From contig JANMLN010000151.1 in NCBI GenBank assembly GCA_031372565.1, positions 1 to 64,000 of the forward strand: a stretch of DNA of 64,000 nt. Reading direction: 5' to 3'. A program made the position numbers and the translations under genes. This DNA comes from Gemmatimonadota bacterium (GTDB lineage: Bacteria; Gemmatimonadota; Gemmatimonadetes; Gemmatimonadales; Gemmatimonadaceae). The notes beneath the pieces were generated by a model. It worked only from the letters and a program-made list of their open reading frames with translations, was not told where the DNA came from and made no database searches. Shown here piece after piece: positions 1-53,978 of this stretch; position 1 is the stretch's first letter; every line of letters begins with the position of its first letter.

Positions 1-366
1 CGGCCACTGGCCGCTCAAGCGCACCAAGTGGACGACCTCCGCTTCGATTGTCTCAAGATCCTGGTCGGACAGAGAAGGTTCCGCAGCGTACCACACCCAG
101 AGCGAGATCTCCTTCACGTGGTGGCGAAAGCGATAGCCGTAGTAGCCACCTCGGCCTGAGGCCTTCCAACCGAAACGCAGGCGGCTCCGAAGCGCTTGCT
201 TCGTGACGCCGACGTACACAACGCGGCCCGCTAATGCGAAGACGTACAGTTTGGGGCCTTTCGCTGAGGCACGTCCTCGGAACGGCGCTCTCCCGCCCGG
301 CGTAGTCACTTGGAAATCGCCTTCGGTGACCGCTAGCTCGAAGCGATCCGGTTCGGAGAGCAACAA
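1..366 (-). CDS. Integron cassette ORF, GIY-YIG-like nuclease domain protein (3' end outside window)
   Basis: Manual translation from TTG at 366: MLLSEPDRFELAVTEGDFQVTTPGGRAPFRGRASAKGPKLYVFALAGRVVYVGVTKQALRSRLRFGW...DLETIEAEVVHLVRLSGQWP. Open to base 1. KLYVF-x-VYVGVT-x-LRSRL...E resembles the GIY-YIG motif. Starts 11 nt after an attC core site. Confidence 0.7.
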   Translation of the reverse strand, partial: MLLSEPDRFELAVTEGDFQVTTPGGRAPFRGRASAKGPKLYVFALAGRVVYVGVTKQALRSRLRFGWKASGRGGYYGYRFRHHVKEISLWVWYAAEPSLSDQDLETIEAEVVHLVRLSGQWP

Positions 367-377
367 TGCTTGGGCCT

Positions 378-483
378 TCCTAACGTTCAAGGTTCAGCTG
401 CAGAGCCATTCAATAAAATGGCGCGGCGCGAAGCGCCGTGCCATCCTCCATAGCGGCTCTGTCAGTTGCAACCGGCGTTAGGA
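378..483 (-). mobile_element. attC recombination site 1
   Basis: Minus strand: TCCTAAC-GCCG-GTTGCAAC-TGAC...GCTGAAC-CTTGAAC-GTTAGGA. Long imperfect palindrome with two extrahelical bases. Confidence 0.9.
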
Positions 484-508
484 AACCGGGCGCCAGCTGC
501 TCGGGGAC

Positions 509-784
509 CTATAGCGGCCATTTGATGACGGCCTCGGCGAGAATCTCGTCGAAAGGTCGCGAACGCTTGCGGTGCTCGCTCGCGACGAAGAGCACCCTCT
601 CGGCGAACGCGTAGTTGTTGTCTTGGAGCTCCTTCGACACGCCGAAGTACTTTCTGGCCTGAGCGAACGAGACGCGACCTCCTCGTAGAAACGAATGATG
701 CAGGCGCGATAGCTGATCACGCGTCAATCGCTCGGACTCGAGATAGCTGAGAGATTCGCGTAGACGATCGGCCTTCGATGTCAA
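509..784 (-). CDS. Integron cassette ORF, hypothetical protein (91 aa)
   Basis: Fills the space between attC2 and attC1. TTG start 9 nt after the GTTAGGC core. Confidence 0.7.
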   Translation of the reverse strand: MTSKADRLRESLSYLESERLTRDQLSRLHHSFLRGGRVSFAQARKYFGVSKELQDNNYAFAERVLFVASEHRKRSRPFDEILAEAVIKWPL

Positions 785-793
785 TTCGTGGTT

Positions 794-908
794 GCCTAAC
801 GTTCAAGGTTGAGCTGCGGGACCATCGGACGAGTATGCCGCTGGCGTGTGCAGCGAGCAAGGTCGCGGTAGGGCGACTTGGCCCCGTCAGCTCCAACCAG
901 CGTTAGGC
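794..908 (-). mobile_element. attC recombination site 2
   Basis: Minus strand: GCCTAAC-GCTG-GTTGGAGC-TGAC...GCTCAAC-CTTGAAC-GTTAGGC. The hicB stop codon TAA lies inside the R'' box. Confidence 0.9.
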
Positions 909-1115
909 CGCGACCTCGACGGAGACGGCATAGCTCGAAGGCGCCGGCAGCGCGGCCCCATCCTCGCGCAGGCCCTCGAGATGAAAGGCGATCGCGTCGC
1001 GGATGCTCGCCTCGACGTCGTCCCGCGTTGCGCCGGTGGCAATGCAGCCGGGCACATCGGGCGAGTAGGCGGAGAAGCCGGTCTCGGTCTGTTCGACAAT
1101 CACGAGGAGCTTCAT
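903..1115 (-). CDS. hicB: HicB family antitoxin (short, no C-terminal DNA-binding domain)
   Basis: FSAYSPDVPGCIATGATRDDVEASIRDAIAFHLEG is a typical HicB motif. ATGA overlap with hicA. Confidence 0.9.
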   Translation of the reverse strand: MKLLVIVEQTETGFSAYSPDVPGCIATGATRDDVEASIRDAIAFHLEGLREDGAALPAPSSYAVSVEVAA

Positions 1116-1300
1116 GTCTTGAGTCCTGCCTGCTTGAGGATGCTATTCAGAGTGCCTGGCGCGACATCGTCATTCGGCTTGCCAGCGACCGTGACGAGGC
1201 CGGGCTTGGTCGGATGGCGATACTGCTCGTGGCTGCCGCGCGTCCGAGCGAGCATCCAGCCGTCATCGCGCAGGAGCCGGAGCAGATCGCGGATCTTCAC
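1112..1300 (-). CDS. hicA: HicA family mRNA interferase toxin
   Basis: DGW...RGSHEQYRHPTKPGLVTV...GTLNSILKQAGL, with the catalytic GSH motif. Confidence 0.92.
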   Translation of the reverse strand: MKIRDLLRLLRDDGWMLARTRGSHEQYRHPTKPGLVTVAGKPNDDVAPGTLNSILKQAGLKT

Positions 1301-1306
1301 CTACGG

Positions 1307-1335
1307 AGTTTGACGAGTCCGCGTGAGGAAGGCAA
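1307..1335 (-). promoter_or_regulatory. Putative sigma70 promoter of the hicAB cassette (probably leaderless)
   Basis: Minus strand TTGCCT-N17-CAAACT, then 6 nt to the hicA GTG. No clear Shine-Dalgarno. Confidence 0.55.
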
Positions 1336-1350
1336 GCGCTTCACGGGGCT

Positions 1351-1457
1351 GCCTAACGTACAAGGTTCAGCTGCGGAGCCATATCAACAAAATGGCGCGG
1401 CGCGAAGCGCCGTGCCATCCTCCGCAGCGGCTCCGTCAGTTGCAACCGGCGTTAGGG
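1351..1457 (-). mobile_element. attC recombination site 3
   Basis: Minus strand: CCCTAAC-GCCG-GTTGCAAC-TGAC...GCTGAAC-CTTGTAC-GTTAGGC. Near-identical to attC1, with a compensatory stem change. Confidence 0.9.
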
Positions 1458-1474
1458 CGCGGACCGGGAAGTGG

Positions 1475-1903
1475 CTATTCGTCGTGCTCACTCAGGTGCG
1501 CGCGGATCAAGGGGTCGTCGTCCGCGATATGGTCGATGATGTGGAAGACATCTTCCAGCCGTGGGTGGGCGAGTGCGGCATCGCGGGAAAGCACTTCGCC
1601 CATGATCTCGACGTGCTGCCAGGGAGACTCGCTCCGTTCAAGCACTCGTGCGGCCCTACCCTCTGGATTGACCGATAGCTCGAGCGCGACAGCCACGCGA
1701 CTACTGGGTGGGGCGTCGTCCGCCCAGTCGCCCACGCTGACGAGTGTGCTCACTGCTGGCGGCCGGTGGCCCTCGGTGAAGCGGACGTAGTATATGGCAT
1801 AGGCACTCCCGTCCTCGGACACGTATCCAGTCCGCGTGAGGACCTGCGCACCGCAACACGAACACGGCCGCGATCGCGGCTCCGCGAGTTCGAGAGTGAT
1901 CAT
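1475..1903 (-). CDS. Integron cassette ORF, hypothetical protein with N-terminal CSCCG motif (142 aa)
   Basis: First cassette of the array. ATG 13 nt after the GTTAGGG core; ends just before attC3. Confidence 0.8.
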   Translation of the reverse strand: MITLELAEPRSRPCSCCGAQVLTRTGYVSEDGSAYAIYYVRFTEGHRPPAVSTLVSVGDWADDAPPSSRVAVALELSVNPEGRAARVLERSESPWQHVEIMGEVLSRDAALAHPRLEDVFHIIDHIADDDPLIRAHLSEHDE

Positions 1904-1916
1904 CTGGCTCGGGTCG

Positions 1917-1991
1917 CCCTAACGTGTATTCAACAGCAACTCCCCACCTAGTTCCCGAACGCGCCTTTCGATCAGCTTCCTAATCCCTAAC
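1917..1991 (-). mobile_element. attI-like site with upstream core-like direct repeats
   Basis: Minus strand ...GTTGCTGTTGAATACAC-GTTAGGG. The core has no attC palindrome partner. Extra GTTAGGG/ATTAGGA/ACTAGGT motifs at 1985-1991, 1978-1984 and 1946-1952. Confidence 0.6.
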
Positions 1992-2273
1992 CTTTCCTCT
2001 ACGCGACCGCCCGGCAAGTACCCGCCACACTCCGGCTTGTAACACGCGCCGAGCACCACCTAACTCCGCCGCTCGGCCGCGAACGCGCTGCCTAGTTCGG
2101 CCACCGCGACGCCCTGTGCCGCCACTGAGCCTGGCCCAGCTGCACATCCCAAACGTGAGCCGCCCCCCGGACAGCCGCCCCCCCCACCCCGCTGGACGCC
2201 TCCCCCCCCAACCCGTAGCGTTGCCACCACCCGAACCACCGCTCCGCCGCTCGCCACACCCTCGGCCGCCTCA

Positions 2274-3386
2274 ATGCGCATCACCCGCATCCTCGCCTAC
2301 CGCGCGCTCCTCCCACTCCACGAAACCACCTACAAGTGGTCGGGCGGAAAGTCGGTCACCACCTTCGACTCCACCGTCGTTCGCGTCGAAACCGACACGG
2401 GCCTCGTCGGCCACGGCGAAGTCTGCCCACTCGGGCCCTTCTACCTGCCCGCGTACGCCGATGGCGTGCGCGCAGGCATCCGCGAACTCGGGCCACACCT
2501 CATCGGCGCCGATCCACGCGAGCTCGCCAAGCTCAATCGCCTCATGGACGCCGCGCTCAAGGGGCACCCGTACGTCAAGAGCGGTATCGACATCGCCTGC
2601 TGGGATATCCTCGGCCAGGTCGCCAACATGCCCGTCTGCGAACTGCTCGGCGGACGCTACGGCCACGACGTCCACCTCTATCGCGCCATCTCACAGGAGT
2701 CGCCCGAAGTCATGGCCGCGCGCGTCGCCGAGTATCGCGCGATGGGCTATCGCCGCTTTCAGCTCAAGGTAGGCGGTGATCCCGACGTCGATATCGAACG
2801 CATCCGCGCGGTCGCGGCACAACTGGAATCCGGCGATCGACTGATCGCCGATGCCAACACCGGGTGGGTCCAGCACGAAGCGGTGCGCGTCGCCAAGGCG
2901 GTGCGCGACATCGACGTCTACATCGAGCAGCCCTGTCTCACCTACGAAGAGTGCCTCGCGGTGCGCCGCCAGATTCCGCATCCCTTCGTGCTCGACGAGA
3001 ACATCGACGATCTGGGCATGCTGCTGCGCGGCAAGGCGGACCTCGCCATGGATGTCGTCAATCTCAAGATCAGCAAGCTCGGCGGACTCACCAAGACCAG
3101 GCAGGCACGCGACCTCTGCGTCTCGATGGGCATCGGCATGACGATCGAAGACTCGTGGGGCGGCGACATCGCCACGGCAGCCATCGCGCACATGGCCCAC
3201 AGCACGCCCACCGAATTCCTCTTCACCACCACGGACTTCAACAGCTACGGACCGGTGAGCATCGCCACCGGCGCGCCGCAGCGCGTGAACGGACGCATGG
3301 CGGCATCCACCGCGCCGGGGTTGGGCATTCAGCCGCGCATGGACGTGCTGGGCGCGCCGCTCGTCACCGTCGACAAGGGCGCCTAG
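2274..3386 (+). CDS. Enolase superfamily (mandelate racemase/MLE) enzyme, hydroxyproline(-betaine) epimerase/dehydratase-like
   Basis: FQLKVG, DAN, EQP, DE and NLKISKLGG motifs. Confidence 0.85.

Positions 3387-52360: not shown

Positions 52361-53978
<1,618 letters not shown>

Follow-up and report, generated by a model that had tools for sequence, protein, structure and literature searches.

The closest described counterparts of the elements analyzed here are the attC recombination sites of classical mobile gene cassettes (aadA1, aphA15 and cmlA; attC_4 alignment), the attC site of the veb-1 cassette, the repeats of sedentary chromosomal integrons of the Vibrio cholerae type and the integron of Gemmatimonas aurantiaca T-27. 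According to the accessible parts of the published descriptions, an attC site carries extrahelical bases on its R''-L'' arm only, the last of them being a T preceded by a 6-bp stem; the first is 'usually' a G on the bottom strand, and the central spacer comprises 'usually five to six bases' per arm. The three elements described here lie at positions 378-1457 of a 64,000-nucleotide (nt) stretch of contig JANMLN010000151.1, which as a whole is referred to below as the window. They are very probably attC sites that each terminate one of a run of gene cassettes in a chromosomal integron array: they show every structural element of an attC site, stand within a cassette array and belong to a family linked to integron integrases. 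All three conform to the rule on the extrahelical bases, and neither the usual G nor the usual spacer length is found in them, both features being typical and not defining. In each of them the R''-L'' spacer measures 4 nt and the L'-R' spacer 7 nt (4/7), as opposed to 5/5 or 5/6 in the classical sites. The kind of site is already known and the family is new; its geometry departs from the usual one in a small but conserved way for which isolated precedents exist (4 nt in one spacer of G. aurantiaca and a 4/7 layout in veb-1). The distribution of the family makes a Gemmatimonadota bacterium the most likely host.

The likeness to the classical sites extends to R boxes of the RYYYAAC / GTTRRRY type, an L box in which 3 bp precede an extrahelical base and more pairs, a T as the second extrahelical base, 6 bp on from the first, a loop that varies and a placement downstream of the cassette open reading frame (ORF); the L-box letters of the IMP-1 and VIM-2 sites resemble the GTTgCAxC / GCTGAAC of the window. 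Apart from the spacer split, the window family differs from classical attC in that the first base of the R''-L'' spacer pairs with the last base of the L'-R' spacer and in that the spacer letters are conserved within the family. With the sedentary V. cholerae repeats it shares long sites (about 105 nt) that are highly alike within and between related genomes while the cassettes differ, as well as a toxin-antitoxin cassette within the array; lineage, letters and spacer split are different, and the window array is cut by the window end.

Box and spacer boundaries were drawn according to the IntegronFinder box convention. The cassette genes lie on the minus strand, and therefore the plus strand of the window is the bottom (recombining) strand and the minus strand the top strand. 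The sites, with their scores in a family model (R1, described below), are as follows:

378-483, minus strand, attC1, 106 nt: R'' 477-483; R''-L'' spacer 473-476 (gccg); L'' 465-472; first extrahelical base 469, second 462; L' 392-398; L'-R' spacer 385-391 (cttgaac); R' 378-384; 121.1 bits.
794-908, minus strand, attC2, 115 nt: R'' 902-908; R''-L'' spacer 898-901 (gctg); L'' 890-897; extrahelical bases 894 and 887; L' 808-814; L'-R' spacer 801-807 (cttgaac); R' 794-800; 106.8 bits.
1351-1457, minus strand, attC3, 107 nt: R'' 1451-1457; R''-L'' spacer 1447-1450 (gccg); L'' 1439-1446; extrahelical bases 1443 and 1436; L' 1365-1371; L'-R' spacer 1358-1364 (cttgtac); R' 1351-1357; 122.5 bits.

On the top strand, attC1 reads TCCTAAC gccg GTTgCAAC ... 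GCTGAAC cttgaac GTTAGGA, attC2 reads GCCTAAC gctg GTTgGAGC ... GCTCAAC cttgaac GTTAGGC, and attC3 reads CCCTAAC gccg GTTgCAAC ... GCTGAAC cttgtac GTTAGGC. The R boxes are complementary in all three sites and contain the AAC/GTT triplet (nCCTAAC ... GTTAGGn); R'' opens with T in attC1, with G in attC2 and with C in attC3, the R of the RYYYAAC consensus being matched by attC2 only. The base after the AAC of R' is a G, which is the usual one according to the accessible text of Bouvier et al. (2009). The L'' arm (GTT g CAACTG a ... or GTT g GAGCTG a ...) is followed by a loop region of 60-70 nt, then by the L' arm (CAGCTGAAC or CAGCTCAAC), the 7-nt spacer and the R' sequence GTTAGGn. Compensatory changes set the L box of attC2 apart from those of attC1 and attC3. 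The order of the stem on the L box is identical in all three sites, namely 3 bp, an extrahelical base, 6 bp, an extrahelical T (bottom strand) and 7 bp, and on the plus strand the first extrahelical base is a C (469, 894 and 1443) and the second, separated from it by 6 bp, a T (462, 887 and 1436). A first-pass annotation of the same DNA had claimed 4-nt spacers GCCG, GCTG and GCCG, 7-nt spacers CTTGAAC, CTTGAAC and CTTGTAC, and a bottom-strand C as the first extrahelical base, all of which the parse reproduced. Its further claim of about nine differences between attC1 and attC3, including a compensatory pair (cAgagcc/ggctcTg vs cGgagcc/ggctcCg), held as well, since nine alignment columns differ, among them this A-T vs G-C pair.

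Each arm motif occurred three times in the 64 kb, compared with zero copies expected from 100 shuffles. The fold z-scores of the bottom-strand DNA were -7.0, -4.2 and -5.7 for attC1, attC2 and attC3, and the corresponding bottom vs top fold energies were -33.3 vs -28.9, -31.8 vs -31.8 and -32.9 vs -28.9 kcal/mol. The bottom strand was hence more stably folded in two of the three sites, which is the direction reported in the available part of Nivina et al. (2016). By analogy with described attC sites, the bottom strand would fold into a hairpin in which R' and R'' form a 7-bp R box with the AAC/GTT triplet and L' and L'' form the L box, two bases protruding from the L'' arm (a C and, 6 bp on, a T) would mark the strand, and an integron integrase would bind both boxes and cleave in R', so that the cassette would end between the G and the TTAGG of GTTAGG. 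A scan of window positions 1-3000 against Rfam (E≤10) returned no attC family, only a chance microRNA match.

How unusual this geometry is was assessed by a hand count of the 96 sites in the curated alignment that underlies the IntegronFinder model (Cury et al., 2016, supplementary file 13). The R''-L'' spacer was 5 nt long in 94 of these sites, 8 nt in one (CARB-4), 3 nt in one (gcu41) and 4 nt in none, while the L'-R' spacer measured 6 nt in 61 sites, 5 nt in 31, 7 nt in two (gcu29 and gcu35), 4 nt in one and 10 nt in one; an L'-R' spacer at least 2 nt longer than its R''-L'' counterpart was found in 4/96. The classical lengths of 5 and 5-6 nt against which the first-pass annotation had set the window sites were thus the right yardstick. 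The bottom-strand C as the first extrahelical base (G on the top strand) is ordinary, being present in 22 of the 96 sites by the same hand count. In a longer curated list (Cury et al., 2016, file 10; 291 sites according to the paper), read by eye and unreadable for entries without case marking, a 4-nt R''-L'' spacer is marked for SIM, VEB-1, gcu39 and gcu57, and also for gcu1, gcu23 and gcu66, whose case marking looks shifted; on this by-eye reading the sole exact 4/7 site is VEB-1. As a parsing control, scanners of the same design were run on plasmid class 1 arrays, where the strict scanner recovered five sites and the relaxed one gave 13 matches, four of which lay inside annotated genes and were discarded; eight real sites parsed as 5/6 and two as 5/5. 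Altogether, these data support the view that the 4/7 geometry is unusual against the curated sets, rather than already common in them, which was one of the outcomes that the first-pass annotation had said would overturn its reading.

The veb-1 site (133 bp) has spacers of 4 nt (actg) and 7 nt (ccaaacc) in the list of Cury et al. (2016), but unlike the window family it has L boxes that have diverged and a single extrahelical base, resides in class 1 integrons and shows no sequence likeness to the sites described here. The nearest phylogenetic precedent is the complete integron of G. aurantiaca T-27, which is of the same phylum, has its intI on the same strand as its three attC sites and is tabulated in the IntegronFinder table of 2016 with spacers of 5/5, 4/5 (GAGC) and 5/5 instead of 4/7; the L'' belonging to the 4-nt spacer, GTTGCTGC, also occurs in one relative of the window array (L002). 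A 4-nt spacer in this phylum has therefore been on record since 2016, though without discussion in the part of that publication available to us. The standard model sees the G. aurantiaca sites weakly, their E-values being 0.075, 0.0096 and 0.0082, compared with 4.9e-07 for a cmlA-type site in the same table. These values lend indirect support to the surmise of the first-pass annotation that sites of the window family may score poorly with standard models.

A stand-in canonical model (R2), which was built from five class 1 sites and is too narrow to tell geometry apart from sequence distance, gave 22.8 bits for attC2 and no match at E≤10 for attC1 and attC3; canonical sites scored 72-78 bits in training and 57.7, 40.6, 34.2 and 26.6 bits when held out, and arr-2, aacA4, OXA-10 and others were missed. 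The R2 alignment omitted dfrA14, arr-2 and aacA4, and MAFFT, given nine or six class 1 sites, put the L boxes in the wrong place. As to earlier records of the phylum, Gemmatimonadota are listed among integron carriers in the accessible part of a review, and the taxon-specific attC models of Ghaly et al. (2021) cover 11 taxa, with Gemmatimonadetes neither among them nor in the main text. Judging from the entries listed, a literature search on attC, integrons and gene cassettes in Gemmatimonadetes/Gemmatimonadota turned up nothing on how attC sites of the phylum are structured. Integrons of soil and freshwater phyla may be under-called by models whose training sites come from class 1 and class 2 cassettes.

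The first-pass annotation had surmised a lineage-specific attC family and proposed a custom model as the way to look for it in related genomes. A species-representative genome collection was scanned with the R''-L'' arm pattern, allowing spacers of 3-6 nt, which yielded 16 loci, 11 of them with a Gemmatimonad label. A covariance model built from the three window sites (R1) then gave 54 matches, and keeping the better strand at each place left 37 sites: the three of the window and 34 others on 11 contigs from nine metagenome-assembled genomes, with eight of the 11 contigs labelled as Gemmatimonad. The surmised family is thereby supported, and the window matches the other contigs in its sites only, cassette contents and flanks being unrelated; identity in whole-site matches was about 72-93%, mostly 80-93%. 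A rule-based parse of the 37 sites assigned 4/7 to 25, 5/8 to three (two of which tie with 4/7), 4/8 to two, 5/9 to one (which ties with 4/8), 5/7 to two, 4/6 to two, 4/5 to one and 5/6 to one. In 35/37 family sites the L'-R' spacer exceeded its R''-L'' counterpart by 2 nt or more, and this asymmetry persisted in the diverged arrays L002, L003 and L015, which have other L-box letters. A free scan permitting spacers of 2-9 and 2-11 nt found 21 array sites, of which 17 were 4/7 and the others 4/8, 5/7, 5/8 and 6/8 (one each), plus one likely false match, and no canonical sites in the family loci. A search of plasmids and phages with attC3 (blastn) gave no match.

Pattern matches in L006 and L012 lay within unrelated sequence and were rejected as chance. 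The one likely false positive of the free hairpin scan lies in the window at 52788-52943, with spacers of 8/10 and on the strand opposite to a release-factor-3-like ORF (52425-53978).

Relative to the commonest classical layout, the L box lies one nucleotide nearer to R'' and one further from R' (4/7 vs 5/6), leaving the total of 11 nt unchanged, and the extrahelical bases therefore fall at positions 15 and 22, not 16 and 23. This shift might in principle be an artefact of how the boxes are drawn, with canonical spacers in another register, as the first-pass annotation itself had considered. A second TGAAC adjoins R' (..CTGAACCTTGAAC GTTAGG), and the GTTgCAA of attC1 could pair with this outer copy; such an outer register exists for attC1 and attC3, but it amounts to 4/0, which is not canonical either, and it fails in attC2. 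Both spacer ends can be closed by G-C pairs, and the loop that is then left is small and highly asymmetric (2 x 5 nt); by extending both boxes these pairs make 3/6 or 2/5 equally valid counts. No box drawing, however, yields 5/5 or 5/6 for the window sites; 5 nt on the R''-L'' arm require L'' to start one base later, which leads to 5/8, the second-best parse. Whatever the boxes, the first extrahelical base stands at position 15 from the outer end of R'', compared with position 16 (and 23 or 24 for the last one) in the available text of Nivina et al. (2016). In an alignment of 25 family sites the stated structure paired 92.9% of cells, a value favoured by the fitting of this alignment to the model's structure, and sliding the 3' partners by 1-3 columns reduced pairing to 26-44%. 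In the same alignment nine pairs (29 cells) were changed on both sides, and the observed values were reached in 0/500 column shuffles. The slid controls are independent of the fitting, as are the L-box variants of the family, which comprise CAACTG/CAGCTG, GAGCTG/CAGCTC, CTGCTG/CAGCAG, GTGCTG/CAGCAC and AAGCTG/CAGCTT. We therefore regard an artefact of register as extremely improbable and retain the 4/7 reading.

In three diverged sites (L003:3333-3449, L015:14231-14355 and L015:11765-11891) the pair flanking the L box, formed by the last base of the R''-L'' spacer and the first base of the L'-R' spacer, is flipped from g-c to c-g. This suggests that in this lineage the extrahelical base is preceded by 4 bp of the L helix.

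Integron integrases, called with NCBIfam TIGR02249 at its curated cut-off of 265 bits, were found upstream of the array and on the same strand in three relatives:

L008:2298-3398, intI, 409.5 bits; its array (three sites) belongs to the close family of the window sites.
L002:6362-7429, intI, 371.5 bits.
L015:4926-5867, intI, 407.4 bits.

The three enzymes share 54-60% identity with one another. The L008 integrase is colinear with VchIntIA (2a3v) over residues 13-321 vs 10-318, with one single-residue indel and an E-value of 2.8e-77. Because of this colinearity and of the scores above the cut-off, the relatives' enzymes appear to be ordinary integron integrases with no architectural novelty. 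The first-pass annotation had suggested that the attC family may pair with a distinct integrase. In L002, L008 and L015 intI is transcribed toward the cassettes, as in the Treponema denticola-type layout in the accessible part of its description; the window, unlike that layout, is itself without intI.

The family conserves the 4/7 layout, which the integrases of its own lineage presumably accommodate. It is quite conceivable, although we lean slightly away from it, that the split has no functional meaning and is simply inherited from a founder repeat, with integrases tolerating it and IntI1 or VchIntIA recombining such sites about as well as the cognate enzymes. The core family is very homogeneous, so that its shared geometry could reflect descent, and the spacer total of 11 nt equals the commonest classical 5+6. 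According to the accessible literature, spacers lack sequence conservation and several integrases recombine attC sites, and the part of Pereira et al. (2020) available to us allows spacers of 'up to 10 nucleotides'. Against mere inheritance stands the persistence of the L'-R' excess in the diverged arrays, with other L-box letters, other loop lengths and, in L002 and L015, integrases that have diverged to the extent given above. According to the accessible text of Bouvier et al. (2009), moreover, the orientation and shape of the spacer bulge shift recombination by orders of magnitude, two to four of them for orientation and pairing state, and the sole curated 4/7 site, veb-1, is reported to be a poor substrate of IntI1 (its authors point to a spacer bulge of slightly greater size and to the single extrahelical base without settling on a cause).

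The opposite extreme, that a Gemmatimonadota integrase clade has co-evolved with attC sites whose L box has slid (positions 15/22; L'-R' spacer 2-4 nt longer) and is largely orthogonal to IntI1 and VchIntIA, seems to us rather improbable; if true, it would define a second natural 'geometry class' of integron recombination and offer a handle on how the central spacer sets the architecture of the synapse. The family is a natural test case for spacer geometry, as it combines a conserved 4/7 layout with cognate integrases (L008, L002 and L015) and a candidate attI junction. The central spacer is known to affect recombination efficiency, and its length rules have been studied on few proteobacterial sites. 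Nothing fundamental is changed in the view of how integrons work.

Several observations weigh against the overall reading of cassette-closing attC sites in a chromosomal integron array, with a 4/7 layout conserved in the family and presumably accommodated by its integrases. The 4/7 split is not a trait of the whole phylum, because the sites of G. aurantiaca parse differently, as given above. Both the seed and model R1 were derived from 4/7 sites, which favours the recovery of like geometry. Near-identical sites are carried by the Myxococcales-labelled L005 and L010, which come from one bin, and by the Chloroflexi-labelled L016, pointing to mis-binning or to an exchange of cassettes across phyla. 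Finally, no integrase was detected in the 64-kb window, either with Pfam on 39 ORFs or by tblastn with three family integrases.

The sites lie in the end of an integron cassette array that occupies positions 1-1925 of the window, in which all ORFs are on the minus strand and each is followed by a site. From the head of the array, its components are:

1917-1952, minus strand, array start with an attI-like junction: core GTTAGGG at 1917-1923, preceded on the top strand by TTGAATACAC at 1924-1933.
1475-1903, minus strand, ORF of cassette 1, 142 aa, no Pfam family.
1112-1300, minus strand, hicA toxin gene of cassette 2, 62 aa, PF07927 (E 3.1e-22).
903-1115, minus strand, hicB-like antitoxin gene of cassette 2, 70 aa, PF15919 (E 1e-10).
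509-784, minus strand, ORF of cassette 3, 91 aa, no Pfam family.
1-390, minus strand, ORF of cassette 4, cut by the left end of the window, beyond which the array continues.

The hicA/hicB pair (903-1300) constitutes a single cassette, and toxin-antitoxin cassettes are often seen in chromosomal integron arrays. The segment 1917-1952 is the putative attI-like junction of the first cassette. Fifteen nucleotides of it (1919-1933) are identical to the junction in L008, which lies about 170 nt downstream of the intI stop codon, and the corresponding junctions are TAATTCTC followed by GTTAGA in L002 and TAATACTC followed by GTTATG in L015. Homology further upstream of the junction was not significant (local score 22; shuffles averaged 17.7 and reached at most 26). 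The first cassette is preceded by 350 nt of non-coding DNA (1924-2273) and then a divergent gene of the enolase superfamily (2274-3386).

The definition of a CALIN (cluster of attC sites lacking integron integrases) includes an exact distance rule. With three attC sites and no intI across 62 kb on the expected side, the other side being cut by the window end, the array is a CALIN in the sense of at least two attC sites and no adjacent integron integrase (Cury et al., 2016). It has either lost its integrase gene or stands apart from it, and it has retained the attI-like junction. One might go further and regard the sites as relics in a frozen CALIN, recombination having ceased in this genome together with the loss of the integrase, which we hold to be unlikely. 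The missing intI, whose usual place in the family is taken by the non-coding stretch and the divergent enolase-superfamily gene, would agree with such decay. So would the half-sites in L001 and L016 and the transposase genes of the IS481, IS3 and IS30 families that stand beside or inside arrays of relatives (L005:1032-2042, L011:34-1155, L013:10112-11269 and L016:3649-4806), the ORF in L011 overlapping an attC site. All three window sites, on the other hand, retain complementary R boxes, the AAC/GTT triplets, both extrahelical bases and compensatory pairs, and an integrase encoded elsewhere in the genome, beyond the 64 kb, could act on them in trans.

The half-sites of the family consist of an R''-L'' arm that runs into unrelated sequence with no partner arm within 150 nt, and they were found at L001:399-427, L016:5726-5755, L009:10001-10027 and L014:635-661. 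In the window, the segment 2140-2230, between the array head and the enolase-superfamily gene, is of low complexity and rich in G/C homopolymers, with runs of 7-8 C.

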